Positions 1-32,000 are shown, numbered from the stretch's first letter. The stretch: DNA of 32,000 nucleotides from Candidatus Saccharimonadota bacterium (GCA_036689225.1 CP144768.1:95306-127305); one strand, 5' to 3'. Notes: a model not told the origin generated them from the sequence alone. A program made the numbers and translations.

Positions 1-813
1 GATGTTAATATTAATATTCCTTCATTAGGAATAGAAATAATGTCTCCTCCTGGTATGGAAGATATGACTAATCAATTACAATCTATTTTTCGTAATTTGA
101 GTAGTAAAAAAAAAAAAATACATAAATTAAAAATAAAAGATGCTATGAATTTACTTATTGAAGAAGAATCATCTAAATTAGTTAATTTTGATGATGTTAA
201 ACGTAGAGCTATTGATTTAGTAGAACAACAAGGTATTGTTTTTATTGATGAAATTGATAAAGTTTGTAAAAGAGGAGAAATTAGTGATTCTGGTGTATCT
301 AGAGAAGGAGTTCAAAGAGATTTATTACCTTTAATAGAAGGTTGTACAGTATCTACTAAATATGGTGTTATTAAAACTGATTATATATTATTTATAGCTT
401 CAGGATCTTTTCAATTTTGTAGTCCTTCAGATTTAATACCTGAATTACAAGGTAGATTACCTATTAAAGTAGAATTAAGTGCTTTAACAAATAAAGATTT
501 TGAAAGAATTTTAGTTGAACCAGATATTTCTATTACATCACAATATAAAAATTTATTAAAAGTTGAAGGTGTTAAAATAAGTTTTACTAATGATGGAATA
601 AAGTCTTTAGCTAATATTTCTTGAAAGATTAATGAAAATACAGATAATATAGGTGCTAGAAGATTACATACAGTATTAGAAAAATTAATGGAAGATATAT
701 CTTTTAATGCTAATAAATATAAAAATAAATCAATTTTAATAGATTCTAAATATGTAAATTTAAAATTAAATAATTTAATTATAAGTGAAGATTTAAGTAA
801 ATTTATATTATAA
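1..813 (+). CDS. hslU: ATP-dependent protease ATPase subunit HslU (5'-truncated by window edge)
   Basis: Frame 1 is open from base 1. '[20 protein letters not shown]', '[14 protein letters not shown]', '[23 protein letters not shown]' and C-terminal 'EDLSKFIL*' track E. coli HslU. The TGA at 622-624 falls where E. coli has Trp (AAWQVNE), and the frame continues to TAA at 811-813. Confidence 0.95.
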
Positions 814-841
814 TTATTTATTATTTTTTTTTAATATTATA

Positions 842-886
842 TATATATAATATATATAATATATATAATATATATAATATATATAA
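842..886. repeat. Tandem repeat, 5 perfect copies of the 9-mer TATATATAA
   Basis: Read directly: units at 842-850, 851-859, 860-868, 869-877 and 878-886, just downstream of the hslU stop. Confidence 0.9.
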
Positions 887-955
887 ATTATATTTTAAAA
901 TATTTGGTATTTTTATTTATTTTATATTATATATTTGATAATATATTATATATTT

Positions 956-1231
956 ATGAAATTTAAAAATTGAAATAGAAATATAGCTATAAATATAGCT
1001 TTTAAAGAAAATATTATTTTAAATATATATTATTGAAGAATAATTTTTTATTTTAGATTTTATTATTTAAAAAATAAAATTATTCCTAATACAAGAAATT
1101 TATTAAATTTTTTAAATAAAAGATATAATTATAAATATAATAGTTTATATTTATTTAAATTATTTCCAAAAGGAGTAATAAAACAAATTACTAAAATTTC
1201 TTGTTTACCTAATAATATGCAATGTTTTTAG
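956..1231 (+). CDS. Hypothetical 91-aa protein, visible only under code 4 (two in-frame TGA)
   Basis: ATG at 956, TAG at 1229-1231, with TGA codons at 971-973 and 1034-1036. Translation begins MKFKNWNRNIAINIAFKENIILNIYYWRIIFYF and ends KISCLPNNMQCF. It has the same orientation as its neighbours. I recognise no family, and it could be a gene remnant. Confidence 0.3.
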
Positions 1232-1244
1232 TTAAATATAAATT

Positions 1245-1457
1245 ATGAAAAAAAAAATACATCCTAAAATTTTTAGTTTAAAAATAAGTTGTTCTTGTGG
1301 AAATATAATAAATATTTTATCTACATTAAAAAATAATTTTTTTGTAGATGTTTGTTATAAATGTCATTCTTATTATACAGGAAAACAAAAAACTTCCTTT
1401 TCTAAAGGAAGAATAGAAAATTTAAAAAAAAGATTTAATAATATAAATTATATATAG
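1245..1457 (+). CDS. rpmE: 50S ribosomal protein L31
   Basis: The 70-aa product 'MKKKIHPK...SCSCGN...DVCYKCHSYYTGKQK...GRIENLKKRFN' matches the L31 Cys motif and the E. coli RpmE layout. Confidence 0.95.
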   Translation: MKKKIHPKIFSLKISCSCGNIINILSTLKNNFFVDVCYKCHSYYTGKQKTSFSKGRIENLKKRFNNINYI

Positions 1458-1494
1458 TATATATTATATATAATATATATATATATATATATAT
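1458..1494. repeat. (TA)n microsatellite / self-complementary spacer between convergent rpmE and murA
   Basis: Read directly: TATATATTATATATAATATATATATATATATATATAT, with an uninterrupted alternating TA run at about 1474-1494. It abuts both stop codons and may act as a bidirectional hairpin terminator. Confidence 0.6.
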
Positions 1495-2753
1495 TAATTT
1501 ATTTTTATATTTAAATTTTTAAATTTTTCTATTATATTTTCATATCCTCTATATACATGATATATAGATTTTATTATTGTTTTACCATATGCAATACATC
1601 CTGCTAGTATTAATGTTATTGAACATCTTAAATCTTTTGCAATTATAGTTTTACCAAAAATTTTTTTTACTCCATAACATATAATTTTATTATTTATATT
1701 TTTTATTTTTGCACCCATTTTTTTTAATTCTTTAATATGTGAAAATCTTTTTTTAAATATATTTTCTATTATAATACTATTTCCTTTAGAAATAGAATTA
1801 AGTAATGTAAATTGTGGTTGCATATCTGTAGGAAAATTTGGATATGGATTAGTAATAATATTTACTGATTTACATCTTTTATTTTTCATATCTAACATTA
1901 TAAAATCATTTTTAATTTTAATTTTTGCTCCAGATAATTTTAATTTATTTATTATACATTTTAATAAATTAGGATTTGTATTATAACAAATTATTTTTCC
2001 TTTTGATATTGCGGATGCTAATAGATATGTTCCTGTTTCTATTCTATCTGGTAATATTTTATATATTATACATGATGATAATTTTTTAATTCCATATATA
2101 ATTATTGTATTTGTTCCTGCTCCATATATATTTGCTCCTGATTTATTTAAAAAATTTATTGTATCTATTATTTCAGGTTCTTTAGAAGAATTTTTTATTA
2201 TAGTTTTTCCTTTTATAAATATTGATGCTAATATACTTGTAATTGTAGCTCCTATACTTTTTTTTTTAAAAAAAATTATATTTGATTTTAATTTTTTATT
2301 TATTTTAGCTTTTATAATATTATTTTTATATTTTATTTTTACTCCTAAACATTTTAATGCATATAAATGTAAATCTATTGGTCTAGAACCTAGATTACAT
2401 CCTCCTGGAGTATTTAAAGTAATTTTTTTACATCTTATTAAAATTGGACTTAATAATCATATAGATGCTCTAATTTTTTTAATTAAATTTAATGGAAAAT
2501 AATTATTATTTATATTTTTTGAGTTTATTATTATAGTATTTTTTTCTCTTATTATTTTTATACCTATTTTTTTAAATAATTTTAAAGTTATATTTATATC
2601 TTCTATATTTGGTATATTTTTTATTGTTATTTCTTCTTTTATTAATAAAGAACTATATAATATTGGTAAAGCTGAATTTTTTGATCCTGATATTTTAACT
2701 TCTCCTTTTATTTTATTTGGTCCTAATATTATAAATTTATTTTTTTTTTTCAT
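1494..2753 (-). CDS. murA: UDP-N-acetylglucosamine 1-carboxyvinyltransferase
   Basis: ORFs 2457..2753 and 1494..1898 plus the sequence between them form one frame of 419 codons, the same length as E. coli MurA. 'GEVKISGSKNSALPIL', 'IRASIW(TGA)ALGPL', 'NPYPNFPTDMQPQFTLLN' and 'YHVYRGYENIIEKFKNLN' are conserved. It ends at TAA. Confidence 0.95.
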
Positions 2754-3516
2754 TATTATTTTTTATTATATTTAATATTTTAATAAAATTTTTTATTTTA
2801 AGTGAATAATTACCTATTAATAATCCATCTATATTTTTTTGTGTTATAATTTTTTTTATATTTTTTATATTTATTGAACCTCCATATAATATTTTAATAT
2901 TTTTAATATTTTTTTTACTTTTTTTATATATATAATTTTTAATATAAATATTTATTTTATTTATATGTTTTATATTTGCTATTTGTCCTGTACCTATAGC
3001 TCATATTGGTTCATAAGCTATTATTATATTTTTAAATATATTAATATTATTTTTTTTTATTATATATTTTATTTGATTTTTACATATTTTTAAACTTTTT
3101 TTATTTTTATAATCTTTTATATTTTCTCCTATACATAATATAGGAATTATTTTATTTTTTTGTGCTAATATAATTTTTTTTAATATAATTTTATTGTTTT
3201 CTTTATGATTTTTTCTTCTTTCTGAATGTCCAATTAATGTATATTTTATTCCAATATCTTGTAACATTATTGGAGATGTTTCTCCTGTATAAGGTCCTAT
3301 TAAATTTTTATCAATATTTTGTGATATTAAATTTATATTTTTATTTTTTTTAATTATTTTTTTTATTTTATATAAATATATTATTGGAGGTGCTATTAAT
3401 ATTAATATTTTATTATTTTTATTATATTTATTATATTTTATTAGTTTTTTAAAATATTTTTTTATAAATTTTAAATTTCCATTTAATTTTCAATTAGCTA
3501 TAATTATTTTTTTCAT
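2737..3516 (-). CDS. tpiA: Triosephosphate isomerase
   Basis: ATG at 3516 gives 'MKKIIIANW(TGA)KLNGN', then 'GPYTGETSPIMLQDIGIKYTLIGHSERR', 'LCIGE', 'AYEPIW(TGA)AIGTGQ' and 'YGGSIN'. My hand translation reaches TAA at 2737-2739, giving 259 aa. The 3' end overlaps the murA start by 17 nt in another frame. Confidence 0.92.
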
Positions 3517-3627
3517 ATTTTATATATTTTTAAATTAATAATATTTATATTATAATTTAATTTATTAAATTATTATAAATATGTTATATTATTATATAAA
3601 TAATTTATAATTTTTATTAAATATAAT

Positions 3628-4554
3628 ATGAAATATAAATCTGCTTTTTTAGATAGTATTAATAATTTTTTAAATATTAAAGAAAATGGAATATATATAG
3701 ATTGTACATTTGGTTGTGGTTATCATTCTCTTAAAATATTAAATTATTTAGGAAAAAAAGGTAAATTATATTCTTTTGATTGCGATTATGATTCTATTAA
3801 AATTGGAAAAAAAATAATTAAAGATAATCGTATAAAATTAATAAATGATAATTTTATTAATTTAGAATATTATATTAAATTATTTAATTTATATAAAAAA
3901 ATTGATGGTATTATTTTTGATTTAGGATTATCTTCTATACAATTGGATAATTCTATCAGAGGTTTTTCTTTTTTAAAAAATGGTCCTTTGGATATGAGAA
4001 TGAATCAAAAATTAGGTTTTCCTTTAAAAATTTGAATTAATAAAGCAAAAGAAAAAAATATTTATAATATAATAAAAAAATATGGACAAGATTATAATTC
4101 TAAAAGAATATCAAAAAATATATTTTTATATTGTAAAAATAAAATTTTAAAAACTACTAATGATTTATCTAATATAGTAAAATATTCTGTAAATAATTAT
4201 AAAGATTATAAAAGTAAAGCTAGAGTTTTTCAAGCTTTTAGAATATTTATTAATAATGAATTATTTAATTTAAAAAATATTTTATATAAATGTTATAAAT
4301 TTTTGTCTAAAAAAGGTAGATTAGTTATAATTAGTTTTAATTCATTAGAAGATAAAATAGTAAAAGAATTTATTAAAATAAAATCAGATAGTAATTATTC
4401 ATTAATTAATAATATACCTTTAACTATTAATCAAATTAATAATTTTAATCCACCTGAATTAATTAATTTAGGTAAATTTAAACCTTTAAAAAAAGATATT
4501 ATTATAAATAATAGAATAAGAAGTGCTATATTAAGAGTTGCAGAAAAAATTTAG
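3628..4554 (+). CDS. rsmH: 16S rRNA (cytosine1402-N4)-methyltransferase RsmH/MraW
   Basis: ORFs 3628..4035 and 4303..4554 share a frame and are joined through TGA at 4033-4035. 'GIYIDCTFGCGYHS', 'DGIIFDLGLSSIQLD', 'RGFSFLKNGPLDMRM', 'RVFQAFRIFINNEL' and 'GRLVIISFNSLEDKIVKEF' match RsmH. Confidence 0.9.
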
Positions 4555-4556
4555 TT

Positions 4557-6086
4557 TTGTTTAATAAGAGGTTTTTTTTGAAAAAAATTAATTTAAAAGA
4601 TATTTTATTTAAATATTTTAATACTGATAATTTTCCTAATATTTATATAAGTGACATAAAACTTGATAGTAGATTAATTAAAAAAAATAATTTATTTATA
4701 GCTATAAAAGGTTATAAATTAAATGGTAGAAATTATATAAATAATGCTATATTAAATGGAGCTATATCAATATTAACTTATTCTAATATAAATAAAAATT
4801 ATTATTTTTTAAATTTAAAATATAATATTTTTATGTTTTTTATTTTTAATTTAAATTATTTTTTATCTGAAATATCTGGCAATTTTTATAATAATCCAAG
4901 TAAAAAAATGTTTTTATTTGGTGTTACAGGAACTAATGGTAAAACAACTGTTGTTAATTTTATTTCTAATTGAATTTATTTATTAGGTTTAAAAAGTTCT
5001 GTTTTAAGTACTATAGGTAATGGTTTATATAATAATTTACATAATTCATTAAATACTACAGATTCTGCTGTTGAAATTCAATATGAATTAAATAATCAAT
5101 ATAATATGGGTTCTAAATTTACTTCTATTGAAGTATCTTCACATTCATTAATTCAACATCGTGTTAGATCATTATATTTTTCTTCTGTTATATTTACTAA
5201 TCTTACTTTAGATCATTTAGATTTTCATAAAAGTTTTAAAAAATATGAATTAGCTAAAAAAAAATTATTTTTTGAATTTGGAGTTAAAAATTTAATTATT
5301 AATATAGATGATCCTATTGGATTTAAATGATTTAGAAAATTATCACATAAATATGTTATTCCTGTAACATTTAATAAAAAATATATTATTTATTTTAAAA
5401 ATAGATGATTATATATTAAAAAAATTATTTCTTTTGGTTTTTTAAGAAAAATTTATTTTGAATCTTATTTAGGTAATGGTATATTAAATATTTTTTTTCC
5501 TGGTAATTTTAATATTATTAATGTTATGTTAAGTTTTACATCTTTATTATCATTAAATTTTAATTTTGATAGTTTATTACGTAAAAGTAAATATTTAAGT
5601 TTACCTAAAGGACGTATGGAGTTTTTTTTTTGTAAAAAAAAACCATTATTTATAGTTGATTTTGCTCATACTCCTGATGCATTAAAAAATATTTTATTAG
5701 AATCTAGAAAATATTGTTTAGGAAAATTATGATGTATTTTTGGTTGTACTGGTGATAGAGATAAAAATAAAAGATTTTTAATGGGATTTATAGCTAAAAA
5801 ATATTCAGATATAGTTGTAATAACTAATGATGATTTATATTCTGAAGATGAAAATTCTATTTTAAAAGATATAAAATTAGGTATATATAATTTTAATAAT
5901 GTTTATATTATATTAAATAGAAAGTTAGCAATTAAATTTTGTATTGAAAATGCTAATTATAATGATGTTATATTAGTAGCGGGTAAAGGTCATGAAAATT
6001 TTCAAATTTTATTAAATAAAAAAATAAAATATTCTGATAGATATTTTATAAAAAAATTATTATTTAAATCTTTATGAAAAAAATAA
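4557..6086 (+). CDS. murE: UDP-MurNAc-L-Ala-D-Glu:meso-DAP ligase
   Basis: Four track ORFs (4557, 5106, 5526, 5781) are all in frame 0 and joined by TGA codons. 'GVTGTNGKTT', 'IEVSSHSLIQHRV', 'FTNLTLDHLDFH', 'KGRMEFF', 'DFAHTPDAL', 'LW(TGA)CIFGCTGDRDKNKR' and 'VAGKGHENFQ' are conserved. Under code 4 the frame passes TGA 6075-6077 to TAA at 6084-6086. The start may be TTG 4557 or TTG 4578, the latter preceded by AAGAGG. Confidence 0.92.
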
Positions 6087-7426
6087 ATTTATTAGATATA
6101 GTTAATATTACTGATGCAATTTTAATAGGTAAAAATATATATATAGAAAATATTTGTATAGATACTAGAAATAAAAAAATTGTTAATTCTTTATTTATAA
6201 TTATCAGAGGTAATTATAATATAGATTTTTTATGTTATGATGCTATTAATAAAGGTGCTGTAGCATTACTTTTAGATTTATATTTATTTAAATATAGTAA
6301 TATACCTCAATTAATTGTTAAAGATACTAAAATATCTTTAGGAAAGATATCAAATTGATTAAGGAAAAAAAGTTCTATTAAAATAATTTGTGTTACAGGA
6401 AGTACAGGAAAAACCTCTGTAAAAGAAATTATTTATAATATTTTAAAACAGTCTAATAATGTATTATATAATATTTTTAATTTTAATAATGATTTAGGTG
6501 TATCTAATACTTTATTAAATTTACAATATTTTAAATATAAGTATGGAATATTAGAATTAGGTAGTAATTCTATTAATGATATTAATTATTTATCTAAAAT
6601 AGTTTTACCTGATATTTCTTGTATTACTAATATTTGTATTTCTCATTTAAAAGGATTTAAATTATTTAATAATATAATAATTGATAAAGGAAAAATATTT
6701 AAATATTTGTGTAAAAATGGTATAGCTATTATAAATAAAAATTATTTTTATTATAATTATTGAAATAAATATTTATTTAATAAAAAAGTTATATTTTATA
6801 ATTTTTTAGATATTTTAAAATGTAATGTATTTATTAATGATTTAAATTTTAGTATTTTTGGTACATATTTTACCTTAAATATTTTAGGATTTAAAAAAAA
6901 AATTTTTATTAAATTATTAGGTATTCATAATATTATAAATATTTTATTATCTGTTATAGTATCTTTATCATTAGAAATAAGTTTTAAAGATATTCAATTA
7001 GGTTTAGAAAGTTTACTACCTATTAAAGGTAGATTATATCCTATTTTTTTAAGTAAAACTAAAATAATTTTAGATGATTCTTATAATTGTAATCCTAGAT
7101 CTTTATATTTTGGTACTTTATTTTTACAAAAATGTAATGGTTATAAATTATTAGTTATTAGTGATATGTTAGAATTAAGTTATATGTCTTTATTTTATCA
7201 TAAATATATGGGTTTAATTATAAAAAATTTATATATTAATAAGATATTAAGTATAGGTAAATATAGTTATTATATTTCTAAATATAGTAAAATAGGAGAA
7301 CATTGTAATAATTTTAATATTTTATTATTTAAAATAAAAAAAATATTAAATTTTTATAATGAAGTTACTATTTTAATTAAAGGATCTAATTTATTTAATA
7401 TGAATAAAATAATTAATTTTTTATAG
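6074..7426 (+). CDS. murF: UDP-MurNAc-tripeptide:D-Ala-D-Ala ligase
   Basis: Frame 2 is continuous from ATG 6074 to TAG 7424-7426, with TGA at 6356 and about 6761, giving 450 aa (E. coli about 452). 'CVTGSTGKTSVKE', 'NNDLGV', 'ELGSNS', 'KGRLYPI', 'LDDSYNCNP' and 'ILIKGSN' match MurF. It overlaps the murE end. Confidence 0.9.
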
Positions 7427-7433
7427 GATAAAT

Positions 7434-8480
7434 ATGATAATTTTTTTTTTAAATTTATTTTTTTTTAATGTTTTTATTCCTTTTTTTTTATCTTTTATTT
7501 TTTCTTTTTTTTTTATAAAATATTTTATATTTTTTTTATGTAATTTAAATGTTTTTCAAAATATTCGTATTTTTATTCCTAAAAATCATTTTTTTAAAAA
7601 AAATATACCTACTATGGGTGGTATATCAATATTATTTTCTTTTTTTTTTATATTTTATATTTTTTTTTATAAAAAATATAATTTTGATATATTAATTTTA
7701 ATTTTATTTTTTGTTTTAAATAGTTTAATAGGATTTTTAGATGATTATTTAAAATGTTTTGTAAAAAATTCTAATGGATTATCTATATTTAATAAATATA
7801 TTTTGCAATCTTTTTTTTCTTTTTTATATATATATTATTTATATTATTATAGTTTTTTAAATATTAATTATTATATTTATTTATTTAAATATAAATTAAA
7901 TATAAGTTATATTTATATTTTATTTTGATATTTTATATTAGTTGGAACTTCTAATTCTGTAAATTTTACTGATGGTTTAGATGGTTTAGTTAGTTTTCCT
8001 TTAATTTTAAATTTTATATTTTTATTAATTGTTTCTGTAAGTGAATATTTTTTAATTTTTAATAATATTATTATTAATTATAATTATTTAATATTTATAA
8101 ATTATTTAATAATATTTATTAGTATAATTTTAGGTTCATTATTATCTTTTTTATATTATAATTTTTATCCTGCTAAAATTTTTTTAGGAGATGTAGGTTC
8201 TTTATCTTTAGGTTTTCTTTTAGCAGCAATTTTTATTTTATTAAATAAAGAATTTATTTTATTTATAAGTGGTTTTGTTTTTTTTATAGAATTTATTTCT
8301 GTTATATTGCAAATTTTTTGATTTAATTTTTTAAATAAAAGAATATTTTTAATGGCTCCATTACATCATCATTATGAATTATTAAATTATAAAGAACAGA
8401 ATATTGTATTTTTTTTTTGATTTTTATCATTTTTTTCATTTTTAATTTCACTATTTATATTTTTTAAATTTTATGTTTAA
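7434..8480 (+). CDS. mraY: Phospho-N-acetylmuramoyl-pentapeptide transferase
   Basis: 'IPTMGGISILFS', 'GFLDDYLK', 'W(TGA)YFILVGTSNSVNFTDGLDGL', 'FLGDVGSLSLG' and 'FLMAPLHHHYEL' are conserved. Frame 0 runs to TAA at 8478-8480 (348 aa). AGGA lies 6 nt upstream of the ATG. Confidence 0.93.
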
Positions 8481-9792
8481 TTATATTAATAAAAATATTG
8501 TTATTTTAGGTGTTGGTTTAACTGGATTATCATGTTTAAATTATTTTCTATCATTAAATATATTTCCTAAATTAATTGATTCTAATAAAATAAGTAATAT
8601 TTCTATTCCTAAAGGAATAAAATGTTGTTTTGGTTATTTAAATGAGAATTGAATATTAAATGCAGATTTAATTATTATTAGTCCTGGTATTAATTCTTAT
8701 AATAAAGTAATTATTAAAGCTAAAAAAATTGGTATAGAAATTATTAATGATATAGAAATATTTTGTAGATTAGTTAATAAACCTATTATTGCTATAACTG
8801 GAACTAATGGTAAAAGTACTGTAGTATCTTTATTATTTAATATTTTTAAATCTTATAATATTAAAGTATCATTAGGTGGAAATATTGGTATTCCAGTACT
8901 TAGTTTATTAAATGATAATAGTGATGTATATATATTAGAAATTTCAAGTTTTCAATTAGAATATATATATTCTTTAAAAGCTTTTTGTTCAGTTATTTTA
9001 AATGTTACATATGATCATATGGATAGATATCCTAATGGATTTCAAGACTATTTTTTTAGTAAATTTAAAATTTTTAATAATTCTAAATATTGTATAATTA
9101 ATTTTAATGAAAAAGAAACTTTATTTAAAAATCTTTTTGATAAAAAAATAATTACTTTTGGATATAATAAAGGAGATTATTATATTAAAAAAAAAAAAAA
9201 TTTTTATTTTTTATATTCATATAATAATTTTTATGTAAGTAATAAATTAATTTATTTAAAAGGTATTTTTAATTATTTAAATATTTTGGTTACTATTTGT
9301 ATTTCTGAAATTTTTAAAATTCCTAAAAATATAGTTTTATATAATTTAATTAATTTTATTGGTTTACCTCATAGATTTTCTATAATTAAAAAAAATAATG
9401 GAATTTTATGAATTAATGATTCTAAATCTACTAATATAGCTAGTACTTTAGCTGCTTTAAATAATTTATCTAATGTTAAAGGTAGAATATGATTAATAAT
9501 GGGAGGAGATAATAAAAATGTTGATTTTAATAAATTTTTAAAACCTAATTTATTATTATATAATAATTTATTTATTTGTTGTTATGGTAAAAGTAAAAAT
9601 ATTATATTTAATTTGATTCCTAAAATTTCTTTTAAATTTAATTTTTTATCTAATGTTATTAAATATATTTTAAATTATTTAAAATATAATGATGTAGTAT
9701 TATTTTCTCCAGGATGTTCTAGTTTAGATCAGTTTGTTAATTATAAAGAAAGAGGTAATGAATTTATAAAATTAGTTAATAAATATAATTAA
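8473..9792 (+). CDS. murD: UDP-MurNAc-L-Ala:D-Glu ligase
   Basis: ATG 8473 overlaps the mraY end. 'IVILGVGLTGLSC', 'AITGTNGKSTV', 'LEISSFQLE', 'ILNVTYDHMDRYP', 'GLPHRF', 'W(TGA)INDSKSTN' and 'FSPGCSSLDQFVNYKERGNEF' match MurD. The product is 439 aa. Confidence 0.93.
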
Positions 9793-9818
9793 AATTTTAA
9801 TTTATATATAATTATAGA

Positions 9819-10859
9819 ATGAATCGTATAATGATTATTACTGGAGGTACTGGAGGTCATATATTTCCTGGTTTAGTTATATCTAAATATTTAAAAAAAA
9901 AAAAATATAAAATAAAATGAATAGGTACTAAAAATGGTTTAGAATCTATTTTAGTTCCTAAAAATAAAATAGATATTGAATATGTATATATTCCTAATAT
10001 TTTAAGTTTTAAAAATATATTTTTATATATAAAATCTATATATATTATTATAAAAAAAATAAAATTGTGAAAACCAAATTTAGTTTTAGGATTTGGTGGT
10101 TATATTTCTTTTTTTGGAATTTTTTCATCTTGATTATGTAATATTCCTACTATTATACATGAACAAAATTCTGTTTTAGGATTATCTAATAGAATTTTAT
10201 ATTATATTGCTACAAAAAGTATTCAAGCATATAAAAATACTTTTCAATCAGATGTTATTATAGTAGGTAATCCTATTAGAGAAGAAATATTATCTATAAA
10301 ACCTCCTAATATTAGATTATTAAATCGTAAAGGTAATATAAATATATTAATAATGGGAGGTAGTCAAGGTTCTGAAATTATTAATAATATTATTTTTAAT
10401 ATTATTAATGTTTTAGATATAAATAAATATTCTTTTTTACATCAAGTTGGAATTTTAAATTATAAAAAAAATATAAAATTAATTAATAGTATTAAAAGAA
10501 AAAATTATGTATGTGTTGATTTTATATATAATATATATAAAGTTTATAATTGAGCTGATTTAATAATATGTAGATCTGGTGCATTAACTGTTAGTGAAAT
10601 TACTAGTATAGGTTTAGCAGCTATATTTATACCATTTGTACATAAAGATAATCATCAATATTTTAATGCAGAATTTTTATATAAAAAAAAAGCTGCTATT
10701 ATAATAAATGAATATGAATTAAATGAAATTTTATTAATTAATATTATATTAAAATTAAATAGAAAAAAATTGTTTAATATGTCTAATTTATCTTATTTAA
10801 ATAGGATTAAAAATCCTAATAAAAAATTTATAAAGGAAATATTTAATATTATTCAATAA
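9819..10859 (+). CDS. murG: UDP-GlcNAc:lipid I N-acetylglucosaminyltransferase
   Basis: '[15 protein letters not shown]', 'W(TGA)IGT', 'GFGGYIS', '[13 protein letters not shown]', 'IMGGSQGS' and 'W(TGA)[16 protein letters not shown]' match MurG. Frame 0 runs to TAA at 10857-10859 (346 aa). Confidence 0.92.
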
Positions 10860-10879
10860 TAATATGAAATTTTATTAAA

Positions 10880-12325: not shown

Positions 12326-12352
12326 TTTTTATTAAATTTATAATAATTTTAT

Positions 12353-13563: not shown

Positions 13564-13680
13564 TATTGTTTTTTAATTTATAATAATATATATTATAAAT
13601 TACCTTAAATATTAAATAATAATATATATTTTATATTATTATTATAAATTTTTTATTATATACAAATTTTATATATTATT

Positions 13681-22077: not shown

Positions 22078-22173
22078 TTTTTTGTATATATGTAATAATT
22101 TATATATTATTATATAATATTAATATATTTAGTTAATATATAAATAATTTTATTTAATATAAATTTTAAAATT

Positions 22174-24858
22174 ATGTTTAAAAGTTTTAATGAAATACGT
22201 TATTTATTTATAGATTTTTTTAAATCTAAAAATCATTTTTTAATTGATAGTAGTTCTTTAATTCCTGAAGATAATAGTTTATTATTTACAAATGCAGGTA
22301 TGAATCAATTTAAAAATATTTTTTTAGGTTTAAAGAAAAGTTTATTTAAAGAAGTAGTTACTATACAACGTTGTTTAAGAGTAGGTGGTAAACATAATGA
22401 TATAAATAATATAGGATATACATATAGACATAATACGTTTTTTGAAATGATGGGAAATTTTAGTTTTAATTCTTATTTTAGAAAAGAATCAATTTTATAT
22501 GCTTGAGAATTATTAACTTCTAAAAAATGATTTGGATTAAATAAAAATAAATTAATTATTACTGTTAATATAAATGATTTTAAAACATATAAAATATGAT
22601 CTAATATAATTAATATAAATAAAAATAATATTTTTTTAGTTGGTAAAAAATGTATTAATATAAATAAAAATTTAGATAATTTTTGACAAATGTCAGAATT
22701 TGGTCCATGTGGATATAGTACTGAAATATATTATAATATTAATTCTATTAAAGATATTAATAATTTTTTATTATATAAAGATACTAATAAATATTTAGAG
22801 ATTTGAAATTTAGTTTTTATAGAATATAATATTATTAATAATAATAAAATTGTTTTTTTACCATATAAATCTGTTGATACAGGTATGGGTTTAGAAAGAA
22901 TATCTTCAGTTTTACAAAATGTTATTTCAAATTTTGATATTGATATATTTATAAAATTAAAAAAATATATTTCTAATTTTTTAGATATTAAATTAAATAA
23001 AAAAAATTGTTTTATTTTTAATTTAATTTCTGATCATTTAAGATCTATTATATATCTAATAATAGATAATGTATTACCTTCTAATGAATATAGAGGCTAT
23101 ATATTAAGAAAAATTATTAGAAGAACTTTAACTTATATTTATTTATTATTAAAAAATAAAAATTTTATTTTAAATAAATTATTATATTTTATTAAAGATT
23201 GATTTTTTTATTATTATAATATAAATAATAAAAATATTTTTTTAAAAATTAAAAATATAGTTTTAAAAGAAGAAGAAAAATATTTTAATAATTTATATAA
23301 TAATTTAAATATTTTATATTTTTATTTAAAAAAAATAAATAATAAAAATAATATTTTAGATGGAAAAATTGTATTTTTATTATATGATACTTATGGTTTA
23401 TATTTAGATATTATAATTGAAGTATGTAAATATAATAATATTAATATTGATTTTAAACAATTTTATTATTTATTAGATTTACAAAAAAAAAAATCTAAAT
23501 TAAATAGTTCATTTAATGATTTTAATTTAAATATTAATAATTTAAATAATATTAAAAAAACTAAATTTTTAGGTTATAATATTAATTGTTGTTATACTAA
23601 AGTTATTAATATATTTTATAATAATATTCAAATTGATTATTTTGATAAAATTAATAAAAAAATAATAATTATATTATCTAGTACTGTTTTATATCCTGAA
23701 TGTGGTGGACAAGTTGGAGATAGAGGTATTATATATAATAGTAATTTTAAATTTTTTGTTTATAATACTAAAATTTTAGGTAAATATATAATTCATATTG
23801 GTAAATTAGAATATGGATTTATTAAAATTAATAATTTAGTAAAAGTAAAATATGATAATAAATATAGATTTGATATATCTTGTAATCATTCAGTTTGTCA
23901 TATATTATTATATATTTTAAAAAAAATTTTTTCTAAAAATATTAAACAATGTGGTTCTTTTATAAAAAATAATTATTTTACTTTAGATTTTTATTATAAT
24001 TTTAATTTAGATAATATAAAAATATATAAAATAAATAAAAAAGTAAATGAAATAATATGAAAAAAATTAAATTTTTCAGAAAATTTTATAAAATTAAATG
24101 ATATAAATAAAAAATTTATATTTTTAAATAAAAAAAAATATGCTCGTATTGTTAGTTTTGGTAATTATATAAATGATTATTGTTGTGGTACACATATTAA
24201 TAATACTTGTAATATAAATTTATTTATAATTAAAAAACAATATAATATTTCTAATAATATAAAACGTATAAAAGCATTTACTAATTTATATGCATTAAAA
24301 TATATAAATAAAAATTTATTTTTTTTAAAAAATATTTATAAATTGTTATCTATAAATAAAAAAAATTTATATAAAAAAATATTATATATAAATAAATATA
24401 AAGTAGAAAATAAAAAAAAAGAAAAATTAATATATAATATATTAATCAATAATATTTTATCTCAAATATTAATAAATGATATTATTAAATATATTAAAAT
24501 AAATATTTTAATAAAAAGATTTTTTTATAATGATTTTTTAAATGAAAATATATTATTTATAATAATAAATAAATTAAAAGTTAAATTTAATTTATCATTA
24601 ATAATTTTTATATTAAAAATATGTAATATTAATAAATTAATTTTTTTTTTAAATAAAAATATATTATTTAATTTTAATTTAGATATTTTAAATAATAAAT
24701 TTATTAATATTAAATTTGATAGAATTATAAAAAAAAATAATTTTTTTATAGAATTTTTTAATATTTTATATTTGAAAGATAATTTTAATTTATCTAAAAT
24801 AATAAAATTTGTTAAATTTAAGTTGTTAAATTTTAATAAAAATATTATTATTAAATAA
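22174..24858 (+). CDS. alaS: Alanine--tRNA ligase
   Basis: Frame 1 is continuous through many TGA codons. '[17 protein letters not shown]', '[33 protein letters not shown]', 'FW(TGA)QM', '[15 protein letters not shown]', '[10 protein letters not shown]', an editing-domain 'NHSVCH' and 'CCGTH' match AlaRS. The product is 894 aa with a very degenerate, low-complexity C-terminal domain. Confidence 0.95.
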
Positions 24859-24870: not shown

Positions 24871-25056
24871 ATGCTTATTTTAACTCGTAGAATTGGTGAA
24901 ACATTAATTATTAAAGATGATATAATTATAACAGTTTTAGCAATTAAAGGTAATCAAGTACGTATAGGAATTAATGCTCCTAAAAATATTTCTGTTCATA
25001 GAAAAGAAATATATATAAAAATTATTAAAAAAAAAAAAAATATTTTAAATAAATAA
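24871..25056 (+). CDS. csrA: Carbon storage regulator / translational repressor CsrA
   Basis: '[48 protein letters not shown]' is near-identical in pattern to E. coli CsrA. AAGGA at 24860-24864 lies 6 nt upstream of the ATG. The position after alaS and before tRNA-Ser matches E. coli. Confidence 0.97.
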
Positions 25057-25076: not shown

Positions 25077-25162
25077 GGTGAGATGACCGAGTGGTTTAAG
25101 GTGCTCCTCTGCTAAGGGAGAATGCTTAAAAAGCATCGAGGGTTCGAATCCCTCTCTCACCT
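25077..25162 (+). tRNA. serV: tRNA-Ser (anticodon GCU), class II with long variable arm
   Basis: Hand-folded. Acceptor GGTGAGA/TCTCACC; anticodon stem CTCCT/GGGAG with loop CT-GCT-AA; variable arm ATGCTT..AAGCAT; T arm GAGGG-TTCGAAT-CCCTC. No CCA is encoded. This is one of only two GC-rich islands I noticed in the window. Confidence 0.95.
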
Positions 25163-25170
25163 TTTATAAT

Positions 25171-25243
25171 ACATCCGTAACTCAGTGGATAGAGTACTCG
25201 GCTACGAACCGAGTTGTCAGGGGTTCGAATCCTCTCGGATGTG
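25171..25243 (+). tRNA. argV: tRNA-Arg (anticodon ACG)
   Basis: Acceptor ACATCCG/CGGATGT; D arm ACTC..GAGT; anticodon stem CTCGG/CCGAG with loop CT-ACG-AA; T arm AGGGG-TTCGAAT-CCTCT. It closely resembles E. coli tRNA-Arg(ACG) as I recall it. A T7 run follows, and no CCA is encoded. Confidence 0.95.
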
Positions 25244-25259
25244 TTTTTTTAAAAATATT

Positions 25260-26339
25260 TTAAAATTTTAAAGTAAATCCTATTGATATTTTATCGTCAT
25301 TTTTATTATTTTTTTTATTTAAAAAATTATTTTTATTTAATTGATCTATTTTATAATCTATATATGCAGATAAAGATTTATTAAATTTATATATAGTTGC
25401 TATATTAAAATATTTTTCTGTATTTTTTTTTGATATATTATTTTTTTTTATATTATCTTGTTTTGTTTGTATATATCCTATAATAGGTGTAAATCCTGAT
25501 TTAAAATTATATTTTGCTACTATATTAAAATTATAGTTTTTTATTTTATTATTTATTTTTTTTTTATTAAAATTATCTCCTTGAGTATATGTTGTTGCTA
25601 AATATAATTTATTTAAATTATATCTTATACCAGTAGATCATATATTTTTATTTACATTATTATTATTTAATATAATATTTTTTTTATTTATATTTTTTTT
25701 TATATTATATTTTTTTGAAGTATATGAACTAGATAATTCAATACCATATTTAGTTTTTAAATTATAAGTAATACCTCATCCATTTTCTAAAGATTTTATA
25801 ATATTATTTGTATTATTATTTGAGTTATTTTTTTTTTGATATTGTAATATAAATGTTGAATTTTTTAATAAAGGTGTATTTTTATTAAAATTTATTTTTT
25901 TTTTATATGTAATTAAATTATTATTTATATTATTAATAATATTATTTTTATTATTTGGAAATATATTTATATATGATAATGTATTATTTATATTTTCATA
26001 ATTTTTTCCATAGCTTATTTTTCCTAAACAATTATCTTTTATACCTATATATAATAAATTTATATTAATATTATTATTTTTTTTATTTGTTTTATTATTT
26101 TTTTCTAAAATTGTTTTTATTTTTCCAAATGTAGTTATATTTTTATTTAATTTATTTTTTCCTTTAATTGATAAAATTAATGATTTATTTATTTTTTTAT
26201 CAAAATATTTATTTGATAATGATCCGTTAATATTTAATAAAAAATTTTTATTTTTTAAAATTGTAATTGATTTAGATGTTTGTATAGTTAATAATGATAT
26301 TATAATAAATATTAATGAATTTTTATTAATTATATTCAT
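25260..26339 (-). CDS. ompF: General outer-membrane porin (OmpF/OmpC family)
   Basis: The frame from ATG 26339 passes TGA 25776 and a second TGA to TAA 25260-25262, giving 359 aa. It has a signal-like N-terminus, 'LLYIGIKDNCLGKISYGKNY', 'LITYKKKINF', 'FILQYQ', 'W(TGA)STGIRYNLNKLYLATTY', 'GFTPIIGYIQTK', 'YFNIATIYKFNKSLSAYIDYKI' and a terminal 'IGFTLKF*' beta-signal Phe. It is adjacent to asnS, as E. coli ompF is. The ompF symbol rests on synteny only. Confidence 0.85.
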
Positions 26340-26421: not shown

Positions 26422-27771
26422 TTAAAAATTTATATAATTTGGATATCTTGGAAAAGGAATAACATCTTTTATATTTTTCATTTTAGTAATATACATTAAT
26501 AATCTTTCTATTCCTAAACCAAAACCACTATGTGGAATAGTACCATATTTTCTTAAATCTCTATATCATCAATATTTTTTTTTATTTAATTTTTTTTTTT
26601 TTATATTAATATCTAATAATTTTATATTTTCTTCTCTTTCTGAACCACCTATTATTTCTCCTACATTTGGTAAAATTATATCCATACATGATACTGTTTT
26701 ATTATTTTTGTTTAATTTCATATAAAATGGTTTTATATTTTTTGGATAGTTTGTAATAATTATAGGTAATTTAAAATATTTTTTTGTTAAATATTTTTCT
26801 ATTTCTGAAGAAAAATCCATACCTCAAATTATATTTTCTTTAAATATTTTTTCTTTTTTTTTTATTATTTTAAATATTTCTTTATATTTTATTTGTATAA
26901 AATTTTTGTCTATTATATTTAATAAATATTTATTTTTTTTATTTTTTATATATTTAAATATAAATTCTAAATCATTATAATTTTTTTTTGTTATTTTTTT
27001 TACACAATATGATAATATATTTTTTGATATTTTTATTATTTTGTTTATTTTAGCTAATACTATTTCTATTTCTAACATTAAAAATTCTGCTAAATGTTTA
27101 TTAGTATTTGAATTTTCTGCTCTAAATATTGGACCTATATTATATACTTTAGATAATGAACATGCATATGTTTCTAAATTTAATTGTCCTGATACAGTTA
27201 AATATGTTTTTTTATTAAAAAAATTTTTATTTTTTATTTCGAACATTTTACTATTACCTTCTGTATCTAAAGAAGTAATAATTGGTGTTGTTATTAAATA
27301 AAATTTTTTTTTTTGTAAATATTTATGAATATTATATATTAATGTATTTCTTATTCTAATTATTGATTCTATTAATGATGTTCTAGATCTTAAGTGTGAA
27401 TTTTTTCTTAAATATTCTAATGAATGATATTTTGCACTTATAGGATATTTTTTTTGATTAGAAATTTTTCCTAAAATTTTTATTTTAGTTGCATATATTT
27501 CTTTTTTTTTATTTTTTTTATTAATTTTAATTTTTCCATTAATTTTTAATGTTCATCCTGTATTTATTTTAAAAATATTTTTGTAATTTTTAATATATTT
27601 TTTTTTTATAATTATTTGAATAGGATTAATACATGAACCATCTTTTATATCTATAAAAAATATATTTATTTTTGAATATCTTATAGTTTTTACTCATCCA
27701 TATATTTTTATTATTTTATTTTTTTTTATTTTTTTTTTTTTATGTATTTTATTTATAGAAATATAATTCAT
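26422..27771 (-). CDS. asnS: Asparagine--tRNA ligase
   Basis: One frame runs from ATG 27771 through several TGA codons. 'IYGW(TGA)VKTIR', '[41 protein letters not shown]', 'W(TGA)[12 protein letters not shown]', '[11 protein letters not shown]', '[11 protein letters not shown]', 'W(TGA)W(TGA)[22 protein letters not shown]' and 'VIPFPRYP' match AsnRS. TAA at 26422-26424 gives 449 aa. Confidence 0.95.
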
Positions 27772-27788
27772 ATTTTTTCTCTTTTAAA

Positions 27789-28526
27789 TTATATATTAAT
27801 TATTTTATATTTTTTTAATCATATACATTTATTATTTTTTTTTTTAATATATTTTAAATATTTTATATGATTTTTAATATATTTTTTTTTTATTGTTTTT
27901 TTTTCGTTTTTATTTAAAATTATATTTTTATTATATTTTTTTTTTTTAGTTTTTATAATTATGTTTTTTTTTTTTATAAAATTAATTTTATTTTGTTTTC
28001 TTGTCATATTTAGATATACTATAGTTAATAATTTAGCATCTATTAATGCTCCATGTTTTTTTCTTTTTGATATATCTATATTATATCTTTTACATAATGC
28101 ATTTAAATTATTTTTTTTTCCTGGAAATAATTTTCTTGCTATTAATAATGTATCTGTAATTTTACATATTTTTTTTATATTTTTAATTTTATGATTTATT
28201 AATTTTAATTCATATTCTATAAATTTAATATCAAAATTTGCATTATGTATTATTAATTCTTTATTTTTTATAAAATTTATAAGTTTTTGAGCAATATCAT
28301 AAAATATTGGTTTATTTTTTAAAAAATTATTATTAATTCCATGTATTTTATATGCTTTATTATCTATTTTTTTTTTTGGATTTATATAAAAATGTATAAA
28401 ATTATTAGTTATTTTTCTATTTATTAATTCTATTGCTCCTATTTCTATTATTTTGTGTCCAACATAATGATTTTCTATTAAATTAATTCCTGTTGTTTCT
28501 ATATCTAATATAATTTGTTTATTCAT
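27789..28526 (-). CDS. dnaQ: DNA polymerase III epsilon subunit (3'-5' proofreading exonuclease)
   Basis: 'QIILDIETTGIN', 'GHKIIEIGAIE', 'YKIHGI', 'LIIHNANFDIKF', 'NLNALCKRYNID' and 'HGALIDAKLL' match the ExoI-III motifs. TGA 27819-27821 is read through to TAA 27789-27791 (245 aa). It is divergent from rnhA, as in E. coli. Confidence 0.93.
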
Positions 28527-28573
28527 TTGATTAATTTAGTTTATAATATTAATAATTTAAGTTAATTTTAAAT

Positions 28574-29056
28574 ATGTTAAAAATAAATATTTATACAGAT
28601 GGTTCATGTATTAATAATCCTGGACCTGGTGGTTGTGCTTCTATTATTAAGTTTATTAAAAAAGAAATTATATTAAAAGCTGGTTATTATTATACTACTA
28701 ATAATAGAATGGAATTAATGGCTTTTATATTATCTTTAAATTTTTTAATTAAAAATTTTTTTATAAATAATGATATTAATATATTTACTGATAGTTCTTA
28801 TTTGTATAATGGAGTAAATTTATGAATTAATTCTTGAAAAAAAAATAATTGAAAAACATCTAATAATAAATTTATTAAAAATATAGATTTATGAAATTTA
28901 ATATATAAAAATATAATTTTATTTAAAAATAAAATTAAATGAAATTTATTAAAATCTCATAATGGTAATTTTTATAATAATAAATGTGATAAAATTGCTT
29001 TTTTATCTGCTAAAAATCCAAAATTTATAGATAATTTTATATATTTTTCTTCTTAA
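28574..29056 (+). CDS. rnhA: Ribonuclease HI
   Basis: 'IYTDGSCINNPGPGG' and 'TTNNRMELMA' are followed by four TGA codons at E. coli RNase HI Trp positions: 'W INS W KKNN W K...DL W'. 'KSHNG' and 'NNKCDKIA' also match. TAA at 29054-29056 gives 160 aa. Confidence 0.93.
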
Positions 29057-29296
29057 TTTTTTTTTATTTTTTAAATATTTTATTTTTATTTATTTTTTTA
29101 AAAAAAATATATTAATTAAATTTTATTTTTATATTTTATTAATTTAATATTATATTAAAATTAATTATTTTTTTTTAAAAAATAAAATTATTTATTTTTA
29201 TATATGTAGTATTAAATATTATTTATTTTTTTAAAATTTTATTTTAAAATATTATAATTAAGTTTTTATAATTTTTAAATATAATATTGGGGTTTT

Positions 29297-30298
29297 ATGA
29301 CTATTAGAATAGGTATAAATGGTTTTGGTAGAATTGGTAGATTAGTATTTCGTAATTCTCAATTTAAAAAAAATATTAAAGTTGTAGCTATTAATGATTT
29401 AATTAAAATTGATTATATGGCTTATATGTTGAAATATGATTCAACACATGGTCAATTTAAAGATAATATTATTATTAAAAATAATAATTTATATGTTAAT
29501 GATAATAAAATATATGTAACTTCTTTTAAAAAACCTAGTGATATTCCTTGAAATAAATTTAATGTTGATGTAGTTATTGAATCTACAGGTATTTTTTTAA
29601 CTAAAGATTTATCTTATGGTCATATTTTAGCTGGAGCTAAATATGTTGTAATGACTGCTCCATCTAAAGATGATACTCCTATGTTTGTAATGGGTATTAA
29701 TCATTATAGTTATAATGGTCAAAGTATTGTTTCTAATGCTTCTTGTACTACTAATTGTTTAGCTCCAATAGTTAAAGTTATACATGATAATTTTAATATT
29801 ATTGAAGCTTTTATGACTACTATACATGCTGTTACTGCAACACAAAAAGTAGTAGATAGTTTTTCTTTAAAAGATTGGAGAGGTGGTAGAAGTGTTTTTG
29901 GAAATATTATTCCTTCTTCTACTGGTGCTGCTAATGCTATAGAACATATAATTCCTGATTTAAAAAATAAAATTACGGGTATGGCTTTTAGAGTACCAGT
30001 TTCTAATGTTTCAGTTATAGATTTAACTGTTAGATTAGATTCTGATGTTACTTATGATAAAATATGTTCTTCTATGTATGAAGCTTCTAAAAGTTATTTA
30101 AATGGTATTTTAGGTATTACATATGATGATGTTGTTTCAAGTGATTTTAATGGTGAAAAATTAGTTTCTATTTTTGATGCAAAATCTACTTTATTATTGA
30201 ATAGTAGGTTTATTAAATTAGTTTCATGATATGATAATGAAACAGCTTATTCTGAAAAAGTATTAGATTTAGCATCTTATATATATTATTATAATTAG
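29297..30298 (+). CDS. gapA: Glyceraldehyde-3-phosphate dehydrogenase A
   Basis: '[15 protein letters not shown]', '[11 protein letters not shown]', '[12 protein letters not shown]', '[10 protein letters not shown]', 'WRGGR', 'IIPSSTGAA', '[16 protein letters not shown]' and 'W(TGA)YDNE' match GapA. The product is 333 aa, ending at TAG 30296-30298. GGGG lies 4 nt upstream of the ATG. Confidence 0.96.
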
Positions 30299-30314
30299 TT
30301 TATTATTTGTACTT

Positions 30315-30370
30315 ATGAATTATTTAATTATATTTTATATATTAATAATTTATTTAATTAAATAATTCAT
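30315..30370. terminator. 16-bp inverted repeat between convergent gapA and the protelomerase gene (candidate bidirectional terminator)
   Basis: Read directly: ATGAATTATTTAATTA (30315-30330) is the exact reverse complement of TAATTAAATAATTCAT (30355-30370), with a 24-nt loop. It sits in the 81-bp gap between two stop codons. The stem is almost entirely A/T, so its function is uncertain. Confidence 0.35.
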
Positions 30371-30379
30371 TTGTATTAT

Positions 30380-31945
30380 TTATTTATTTTCTATTATTTT
30401 TCTTCTTATTATTTTATATCTTCCTTTAATTTTTTTTTGATTTATTTTTTTTGATATAAATTTTATATATTTTTTTATTAATATTGTATTAAATCCAAAT
30501 TTTCTTAATAAATAATTATTTATTAATTGTTCATTATTTTTTAATATTATTTTTTTTGTTATTTCATGTATTTTATATGCATTTTTTCTTTTTATTATTT
30601 TATATAATTTTTTATCTAATTTTAATAATTTTTTATATTTTTTATTTTTATTTTTTTTTGGTTGTCATTTTTTATTAAAATTAATTAATTTAAATTGTTT
30701 ATAATATAATTGACTATTTATATTATTATGACCTAATATTTTATAGAAAAACATATCCTCATCATATTTTTTTCATTTTTTATCTTTTGTAAATCATTTT
30801 TCAAAACATATTCTACTATATATAGATCTTGTGTCTTTAAATGTTCTTTTTTCATTATTAAAAAAGGATTTTGATATTTTATTAAATGTATTTGATAAAT
30901 AATTACTTATTTGATAATTTTTTGATAAATATTTATTTTTTTTTTTTTTTATATTATTTATTATTTTTTTTAATATTTTGTTGTTTCTTATTTTGTTAAT
31001 TTTTTTTATAAATAGTTTTGGTTTACATAATAAATATATATTATATTTTTTTTTATTTTTTATTTTAGCTTGTCCTTTAAATTCTATTTTATAATTTTTA
31101 TTTATTATTTTAAATTTACCTATTTTTATTATTTCTATCATTCTTCTTCCAGATACTGCTGATAATGCAAATGATAAATGTGCTATATTTTTAATATTAT
31201 TAAGTTTAGTATTACTATTTAATATATTAAATATTTCTTGTATGTAATTTTTATAATTTATTAATATAATATTACTTTTTTTATTTTTTAGTTTTTCATA
31301 TGACATTTTTTTTGAAATTAAAAGTTTTCTTTTATCTACTTTTAAATGAAATAATATTTCGTGATTTATTTTTATGTTTTTTATAATTTTTTTAATTTTT
31401 TTACCTTGTTGTATTTTATTAATTATATATTTATTTGATGTATATCATTTTTGATTAATAATATTGTTTAATTCTTTTTTTCATTCAGGAAATTTATTTA
31501 TTGAATATTTTATTATTTTTAAATTATTTTTAGTAGAATATATTTTGATTTTATTAATTTGTTTTATTATATTATTTATAAGTTCTAATTTTTTTAATAA
31601 TTTTTTAAATTCTATATTTATATTTTTTGTATTATTTATTTTATTTATATAATCTATTTCTTTTTTATAATATGAAAAATTTTTTTTTAGATATTTTATT
31701 TTTTTTTTAAAACTATGATGTTTTATATTTAAAAATTGTTTTCTTGATCTAGATATATATGTTATATAACTATTTATTGATAATTTTTTATCTTTTATTT
31801 TTTTTTTAAAATTTATTGCTTCTTTTTTATATAATTTATTTTTTTCTGTTTGTAATATATTTTTTGTTTCTATTTTTTTTATATTTTTATTTAATTTTTT
31901 AATTAATATATTTATATTTTCTTTCATAATTATATATTGTAACAT
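30380..31945 (-). CDS. tel: Protelomerase / telomere resolvase, TelN/TelK (N15-phage) type tyrosine-recombinase-fold enzyme
   Basis: Track ORFs 31481..31945 and 30794..31306 plus flanking sequence form one frame under code 4, with 5 in-frame TGA codons and TAA at 30380-30382 by my hand translation. It gives 521 aa from ATG 31945, or 515 aa from the likelier start ATG 31927 ('MKENINILIKKL'). The blocks 'YISRSRKQF..HHSF', 'NKFPEW', 'INHEILFHL', 'LSFALSAVSGRRMIEI', 'FKGQAK', 'FKDTRSIYSRI' and 'DEDMFFYKILGHNNINSQLYYKQFKLINF' correspond to conserved TelN/TelK blocks as I recall them, with the RxxE, K, R, H and nucleophile Tyr contexts. Confidence 0.88.
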
Positions 31946-32000
31946 ATTTAATAAATATACATATGTATATTTATTAAATATGTTACAATATATAATTATG
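31925..32000. repeat. Perfect palindrome of at least 76 bp (dyad between 31962 and 31963), truncated by the window edge; candidate telomere-resolution site or hairpin-telomere read-through
   Basis: I checked it base by base: position 31925+k is complementary to 32000-k for all 38 pairs, with no mismatch. The core is AATATAC-ATAT-GTATATT. Both candidate start codons of the adjacent protelomerase gene lie in the left arm. Confidence 0.9.

Follow-up and report, generated by a model that had tools for sequence, protein, structure and literature searches.

UGA as a tryptophan codon in a genome assigned to Candidatus Stammera, with loss of release factor 2 and a single tRNA-Trp of anticodon CCA

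Introduction

The stretch of DNA analysed here, hereafter the window, comprises 32,000 nucleotides (bases 95306-127305 of CP144768.1) of a single-contig genome of 268,407 bp and 14.8% GC, referred to below as the source genome. An earlier note on this stretch claimed that the codon UGA (TGA in the genes) is read as tryptophan (Trp; translation table 4) in a genome with the gene order of Enterobacterales. The use of UGA was followed in the window, in the remainder of the genome and in related genomes, together with the release factors and the tRNA-Trp on which its reading depends. UGA as Trp is the sole reading that fits, since TGA is the only interrupting codon and never a terminator, 74-80% of the alignable TGAs lie on conserved Trp, and release factor 2 (RF2) is absent. 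The observation is thus confirmed and its interpretation supported; it has already been published for the genus Candidatus Stammera since 2017.

Genes of the window and their UGA codons

Under table 11, the genes of the window are split into 64 fragments of at least 40 amino acids (aa), whereas table 4 yields 25 full-length protein genes, accompanied by tRNA-Ser(GCU) and tRNA-Arg(ACG) (Table 1). Coverage of the window by open reading frames (ORFs) of at least 100 aa is 46% with table 11 vs 91% with table 4. In-frame TGA occurs 70 times, spread over 23 of the 25 protein genes (degP and csrA are free of it), and the genes are broken only at TGA, never at TAA or TAG, as the earlier note had stated. 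Termination at TAA or TAG, which it had traced in some genes, extends to all 25 (TAA 20, TAG 5). The two TGG codons that it gave as examples of rare usage, in ddlB ('NIWFLE') and gapA ('KDWRGG'), are exactly the two present in the window.

The positions of these codons were compared with those of Escherichia coli K-12 MG1655, of which nine regions holding orthologues served as the reference. In the alignment of all stop-to-stop frames of the symbiont, X replaced TGA, which was thereby unable to bias the result, and overlapping lower-scoring hits (antisense-frame artefacts) were removed before TGA and Trp were tallied. Among 23 window orthologue pairs, 49 of the 61 aligned TGAs fall on an E. 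coli Trp, a residue that makes up 1.1% of the aligned columns (binomial P ~1e-84). The motifs cited in the earlier note are largely found as quoted, with w standing for TGA: TpiA 'ANwKLNG' and 'EPIwAIGTG', AsnRS 'wwYRDL', RecA 'TwYYY' and GapA 'SwYDNE' are all present. For RNase HI the TGAs at Trp sites are borne out, all on E. coli Trp, although they number five and not four; for MurA the Trp position was correct, but the string quoted is that of E. coli and the actual one is 'ASIwLLSPIL'.

Table 1. Features of the window. TGA counts are those obtained under table 4, and residues are the alignment partners in E. coli K-12.
Feature	Position	Strand	TGA codons	Stop	Remarks
hslU, 3' part	1-813	+	1, on Trp	TAA	65% identity to E. 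coli HslU
tusE/DsrC-like	935-1231	+	2	TAG	Pfam PF04358 DsrC, E 8.6e-18; open only with TGA as sense
murA	1494-2753	-	1, on Trp ('RASIwLL')	TAA	
tpiA	2737-3516	-	2, both on Trp		
rsmH	3628-4554	+	1, on Trp	TAG	
murE	4557-6086	+	5, four on Trp		fifth is the ancestral stop, now read through
Relic of ancestral UGA stop	6075-6077	+			TGA of the murE/murF ATGA overlap, corresponding to the E. coli murE stop; here TTA TGA AAA AAA TAA (6072-6086)
murF	6074-7426	+	2, both on Trp	TAG	
mraY	7434-8480	+	3, vs A, S, W		
murD	8473-9792	+	3, vs W, W, H		
murG	9819-10859	+	4, vs W, Y, W, W		
murC	10880-12325	+	1, vs P		
ddlB	12353-13273	+	1, on Trp		1 TGG ('NIWFLE')
secA	13681-16182	+	6, vs A, W, W, W, F, W		
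degP/htrA-family protease	16267-17709	+	none		NCBIfam TIGR02037, E 5e-94; no TGG
dnaX (short form)	17725-18828	+	2, vs W, Q	TAG	
htpG	18915-20789	+	8, all on Trp		
recA	21091-22077	-	1, on Trp ('STwYYY')		
alaS	22174-24858	+	7, five on Trp, one vs gap, one vs R		
csrA	24871-25056	+	none		no Trp codon
tRNA-Ser(GCU) and tRNA-Arg(ACG)	25077-25244	+			serV-argV arrangement after csrA, as in E. coli
OmpC/PhoE/OmpF-family porin	25260-26339	-	2, vs D, W		NCBIfam porin models, E 1e-27 to 1e-34, all below cut-offs
asnS	26422-27771	-	5, vs W, C, W, W, W		tandem 'wwYRDL'
dnaQ	27789-28526	-	1, in unaligned C-terminal tail		
rnhA	28574-29056	+	5, all on Trp		
gapA	29297-30298	+	2, on Trp	TAG	1 TGG ('KDWRGG')
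Protelomerase-like gene	30380-31945	-	5		Pfam ResT/TelK catalytic, muzzle and stirrup domains; recoded like housekeeping genes

Codon usage, termination and release factors across the genome

Genome-wide, 80 of 108 TGAs aligned in 43 orthologue pairs lie on E. coli Trp, where ~1% would be expected by chance (binomial P ~5e-132), and the codons used by the symbiont at E. coli Trp columns are TGA 80 times and TGG once. Together with the tally for the window, these counts uphold the proposal that UGA is read as Trp. Coverage of the genome by ORFs rises from 51.6% with table 11 to 88.2% with table 4, and TGA is carried by 171 of 225 non-overlapping ORFs of at least 100 aa (76%). Trp is encoded by 557 TGA vs 24 TGG codons (~96% TGA), and the ORFs stop at TAA (209) or TAG (16). 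No sign was seen that highly expressed genes avoid TGA: the ribosomal protein genes rpsA and rpsB use it seven times (six on Trp) and four times (three on Trp), respectively.

Most orthologues that align to the C-terminus of their E. coli counterpart (25 of 27) reach TAA or TAG without a preceding TGA. In the remaining two, murE and dnaQ, a TGA is found a few codons from the expected end and is followed by TAA within 2-9 codons. Comparison of the junction with murE/murF of E. coli shows the TGA of murE to be a captured ancestral stop, read through to the TAA three codons later.

A single gene with an RF-1 domain is present in the genome, and this sole release factor gene is prfA (NF001859, 419.8 bits vs a cut-off of 400; prfB model, 261 vs 370; codon-recognition tripeptide PET). 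A tblastn search of the genome with four Stammera RF2 proteins for a prfB relic matched only prfA. Relatives show the arrangement prfA / pth-prfB-lysS, whereas in the source genome pth directly abuts lysS. prfB has been cleanly deleted from this slot, and RF1 is left as the sole class-I release factor; the check for loss of prfB that the earlier note had proposed thus came out in its favour. Release factors of the RF1 family read UAA and UAG.

Organism and lineage

The genus Candidatus Stammera spans 0.22-0.34 Mb and 13.9-20.4% GC (PMC13462651), and the size and GC content of the source genome fall inside this range. In a back-translated search with HtpG, the nearest named record is a metagenome-assembled genome of Candidatus Stammera capleta (80% identity), and the next-best matches, at 45-48%, belong to other insect symbionts of the Enterobacterales; identity to the nearest sampled relatives is 80-82%. 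A maximum-likelihood tree of HtpG recovers 45 genus genomes as monophyletic (100/100), with E. coli, Dasytiphilus and a Plautia symbiont outside, and places the source genome in a crown clade; as a single-gene tree, it places deep nodes only roughly. The Enterobacterales lineage asserted in the earlier note is supported by this grouping of HtpG with Enterobacterales symbionts and E. coli, and by a gene order like that of E. coli. Against E. coli K-12, the synteny holds for alaS-csrA-serV-argV, porin-asnS, the divergent dnaQ/rnhA pair, dnaX..htpG and the dcw order, which in the window runs rsmH-murE-murF-mraY-murD-murG-murC-ddlB-secA.

It is highly probable that the window derives from a species of Candidatus Stammera, a member of the Enterobacterales that lives extracellularly as a symbiont in the gut of cassidine leaf beetles, and in which table 4 applies genome-wide. 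The code, the genus and the loss of RF2, taken jointly, we regard as close to certain. The new lineage for this code that the earlier note implied is not one: Stammera has been on standard table-4 lists since Salem et al. (2017), so that the window adds no new lineage for the code.

The tRNA-Trp and the decoding of UGA

Concordant predictions by ARAGORN and Infernal give 29 tRNAs, including a single tRNA-Trp with the anticodon CCA; genome-wide, the two programs revealed neither a UCA anticodon nor a selenocysteine tRNA (tRNA-Sec). The tRNA-Trp(UCA) that the earlier note had suggested looking for elsewhere in the genome did not turn up; tRNA-Trp(CCA) is the only one. A hidden tRNA(UCA) was considered as well: ARAGORN with relaxed settings gave 217 mostly spurious calls, one of them 'tca', and this candidate was rejected as antisense to an S21-like reading frame, devoid of a cloverleaf (-4.3 kcal/mol) and unseen by Infernal.

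The tRNA-Trp gene is located at genome positions 255783-255855 (L015:1501-1573). In the Infernal alignment to RF00005, its D stem consists of G10-C25, U11-A24, U12-A23 and U13.G22, and its anticodon stem has 5 bp, from A27-U43 to U31-A39 and including G30.U40; the anticodon loop, CUCCAAA, is the same as in E. coli. The T stem has a non-canonical U49.C65 pair at its base, and the first acceptor pair is G1.U72. Wild-type tRNA-Trp of E. coli has U11.G24, as seen in the alignment to trpT, and the G24A change in this tRNA is the classical Hirsh suppressor of UGA (PMC13092985). With a CCA anticodon and U11-A24 both present, the tRNA-Trp of the source genome has the Hirsh-type configuration.

Other determinants of UGA reading were also inspected. 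A 4-bp anticodon stem of the Blastocrithidia/Zinderia type was dismissed, since A27-U43 pairs here and the stem has 5 bp. A ribosomal suppressor was likewise dismissed, as the 16S rRNA does not differ from that of E. coli in helix 34 (C1054 among its positions), in the 530 loop or at the decoding sites of h44. The genome retains miaA (responsible for i6A37), trpS and tilS.

In the decoding step that we favour, the near-cognate tRNA-Trp(CCA), freed from competition by RF2, would read UGA via a C34-A wobble mismatch. The U11-A24 pair of the D arm would probably aid this reading, as would i6A37, given that miaA is kept. Strong mutation pressure from G/C to A/T may then have driven TGG to TGA nearly to completion. 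Such decoding by an unedited CCA anticodon in a Hirsh-type tRNA has, in our estimate from the tRNA and gene sequences, about an even chance of being correct.

Graded recoding and retained prfB in related genomes

Among the 45 genus genomes, HtpG has no in-frame TGA in six and 2-9 in the other 39. Whole-chromosome tallies, which cover the source genome and three relatives, put the share of conserved Trp columns occupied by TGA at 0% in G003, 27% in G019, 77% in G012 and 99% in the source genome. G003 uses the standard code: its 48 orthologues contain no in-frame TGA and have 93 TGG at conserved Trp, 4 of 30 orthologues have TGA where the gene is expected to end, and both RF2 and A24 are kept. 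G019 (chromosome L153-L167) has 25 TGAs on Trp genome-wide and no orthologue ending at TGA, and it looks like a genome at an early stage of recoding. The TGA count in HtpG alone was discarded as a marker of the code, as it mislabels G019 as standard. The prfB gene of G019 (L071) is kept; its SPF and GGQ motifs are intact, and one conserved Trp in it is written as TGA. The tRNA-Trp of this genome (L050) has a U27.U43 mismatch and thereby a 4-bp anticodon stem; those of G012 and G018 have a G27.A43 mismatch.

A second, prfB-like release factor gene is present in 14 of the 45 genus genomes. In G006, G011, G020, G047 and G055, prfB (L073-L077, ~1450-2550 of each locus) has intact SPF and GGQ motifs and 2-5 TGAs at its own Trp sites, and HtpG of the same genomes has TGA at conserved Trp. 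Pairwise dN/dS of prfB within this five-genome group, from which G019 was left out, is 0.19-0.33, the same as for htpG in the same pairs; RF2 therefore appears to be under purifying selection while UGA encodes Trp. The earlier note had held that an intact prfB together with tRNA-Trp(CCA) only would refute the reassignment. This is not a valid test, because the source genome itself is CCA-only, and because sister genomes with an apparently intact prfB and a CCA-only orthologous tRNA-Trp carry TGA at conserved Trp.

Two further observations concern the same genes. RF2 of G003 and of its sister G057 (L067, L068) has NPF in place of the canonical SPF codon-recognition motif, and HtpG of G057 is without TGA. 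In G037 (L098), a 0.3-Mb symbiont of another family of the order, tRNA-Trp has a U11.U24 mismatch, and a prfB match above the model cut-off is present.

The distribution of TGA and prfB over the genus suggests that reassignment may have preceded the loss of RF2 and that prfB was probably lost several times, an ordering taken from one gene tree. A fuller scenario can be put forward tentatively, and we consider it possible but rather doubtful: the table-4 code of the source genome would depend wholly on a near-cognate tRNA, and a natural Hirsh-type tRNA-Trp would have arisen in the ancestor of Stammera at a time when UGA still served as a stop, made UGA leaky and allowed its capture by Trp before RF2 was lost. 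The proposed order of events fits G003, with A24, RF2 and UGA stops and without in-frame TGA; G019 and the five-genome group, recoded with prfB; and the source genome, without prfB and ~96% converted.

Weighing of the evidence and alternative readings

Several points count against the reading given above or limit it. A share of the aligned TGAs (26%) lies off E. coli Trp, as is expected for diverged positions and is seen for TGG too. The completeness of the genome, estimated from markers, is 89.8%, so that the 'absence' of a gene rests on the single contig together with the empty syntenic slot. A C-A mismatch would be an unusually inefficient means of reading 96% of Trp codons. Furthermore, U11-A24 occurs in the tRNA-Trp of all 45 genus genomes, including the standard-code G003, and in a sample of 28 tRNA-Trp genes from across the order, position 24 is G in 22, A in five and U in one. 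The pair was accordingly ruled out as the trigger of reassignment; not being specific to recoded lineages, it is at most permissive. Two members of the same family with larger genomes have G24, and on these comparisons the A24 of Stammera is derived and older than the reassignment. Nothing weighs against the code itself.

The notion that the TGAs are true stops, in pseudogenes, in a decaying genome or through assembly errors, draws on nothing but the fragmented ORF list of table 11. It is already refuted, and its probability is negligible: TGA alone interrupts, 557 times, at conserved Trp, also in genes of ribosomal proteins and aminoacyl-tRNA synthetases, and of the 45 genus genomes, 39 have in-frame TGA in HtpG. 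Hardly more credence can be given to another residue at UGA, be it Gly (table 25), Cys, Arg or selenocysteine. A few aligned TGAs do stand opposite R (three), C (two) and A (two), yet 80 of 108 are opposite Trp, which occupies 1.1% of columns, while Gly, with 7.8% of columns, is not enriched; moreover, neither a UCA-anticodon tRNA nor tRNA-Sec was found. At the level of what selection has maintained, this alternative is refuted. A dual role, with UGA as Trp within genes and as a stop at some gene ends, could appeal to the TGAs close to the expected ends of murE and dnaQ. Both are followed by TAA 2-9 codons on, that of murE is an ancestral stop now read through, the other 25 of 27 ends show TAA or TAG first, and there is no RF2 to recognise UGA, which makes a dual role very improbable.

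A different challenge accepts table 4 and concerns the tRNA: C34 of tRNA-Trp might be altered post-transcriptionally, by C-to-U editing or by a lysidine-like modification through TilS, and UGA would then be decoded by a cognate anticodon. C-to-U editing of C34 in tRNA-Trp is established elsewhere (PMC8677022), and trypanosomatid mitochondria are an example of C-to-U editing. The proposal would also account for a genome in which 96% of Trp codons are TGA and yet the only tRNA-Trp gene is CCA, and tilS is retained, itself with 12 TGAs; the leftover TGG codons, on the other hand, must still be read. With G4-C69 and G5-C68, the acceptor stem departs from the TilS determinants, which are C4-G69 and C5-G68, and we know of no bacterial precedent for editing or a lysidine-like modification of C34 on tRNA-Trp, which also speaks against it. 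Altogether we hold an altered C34 to be unlikely, though more probable than a dual role of UGA; the unedited, near-cognate tRNA-Trp(CCA) is the decoding step that we prefer.

Other features of the window

The dcw cluster of the window (3628-16182) is without ftsL, ftsI, ftsW, ftsQ, ftsA, ftsZ, lpxC and secM at their E. coli positions. A pair of penicillin-binding protein and SEDS genes at genome positions 60652-63565 shows 21-29% identity to FtsI/FtsW and may represent MrdA/RodA. Between ddlB and secA, a lysine-rich ORF of 97 aa (13270-13563, minus strand) has no Pfam match and neither TGA nor TGG, and may be a non-gene. recA lies on the strand opposite to alaS-csrA (21091-24858), whereas recA-recX-alaS-csrA of E. 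coli share one strand; recX is missing here. The protelomerase-like gene is located among housekeeping genes at the end of the window.

Relation to known systems

The code of Stammera has been described repeatedly. Table 1 of the Codetta study (2021; PMC8629427) gives UGA as Trp in Stammera and credits Salem et al. (2017), and table 2 of Manzano-Marín et al. (2023; PMC10540940) records an absent prfB, trnW with CCA and UGA in 62% of coding sequences. A 2026 paper in NAR (PMC13092985) describes its tRNA-Trp as CCA with a 5-bp stem and offers no mechanism, and gTranslate (2026; PMC13695967) reports a basal Stammera lineage with the standard code, the presence of prfB in some of the table-4 assemblies and a constant lack of tRNA-Trp(UCA). 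The literature searched mentions neither the U11-A24 state nor selection on retained prfB, an absence that is not proof of novelty. What is added here is the U11-A24 pair throughout the genus (45 genomes) and prfB under purifying selection in some recoded relatives.

The source genome resembles the Stammera capleta references, which are of the same genus and have ~0.27 Mb, a GC content of ~15%, UGA as Trp in most genes, no prfB, a CCA anticodon and a 5-bp stem; it is a different species-level genome with an identical code. Zinderia insecticola (Betaproteobacteria) shares UGA as Trp, loss of RF2, extreme AT content and tRNA-Trp(CCA) only (PMC10540940), but its tRNA-Trp has a 4-bp anticodon stem, the proposed cause of UGA reading (PMC13092985), in place of the 5 bp found here. 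Hodgkinia cicadicola, Nasuia deltocephalinicola and the Mycoplasmatales also read UGA as Trp, and RF2 is lost in Hodgkinia and Nasuia; all of these have a cognate tRNA-Trp(UCA), unlike the source genome. Closer in lineage is the leech symbiont Candidatus Providencia siddallii PSAC (Enterobacterales), likewise a gammaproteobacterium with UGA as Trp and tRNA-Trp(CCA) only (PMC10540940). PSAC keeps a UGA-containing prfB and has UGA in ~20% of genes, whereas the source genome is prfB-less with UGA in 76% of ORFs; sister Stammera species with a retained prfB resemble PSAC. With the Hirsh suppressor of E. coli, Stammera shares the CCA anticodon and the U11-A24 pair of the D stem. The state in Stammera differs in being natural, fixed in the genus and older than the code change, and in having U13 in place of C13, and its effect on UGA reading here is putative.

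Implications

In practical terms, the genome needs to be translated with table 4, as otherwise ~76% of its genes look broken. In Stammera, nearly all Trp codons are read by a tRNA whose gene has a CCA anticodon. The genus spans species with the standard code, species converted in part and species converted fully, the last of these either with RF2 or without it, and this range makes the genus well suited as a natural system for the order of events in stop-codon capture. A modest residual interest lies in how UGA is decoded and in the gradation of recoding across the genus. If the proposed scenario were true, Stammera would represent a graded natural series of 'ambiguous intermediate' codon reassignment.

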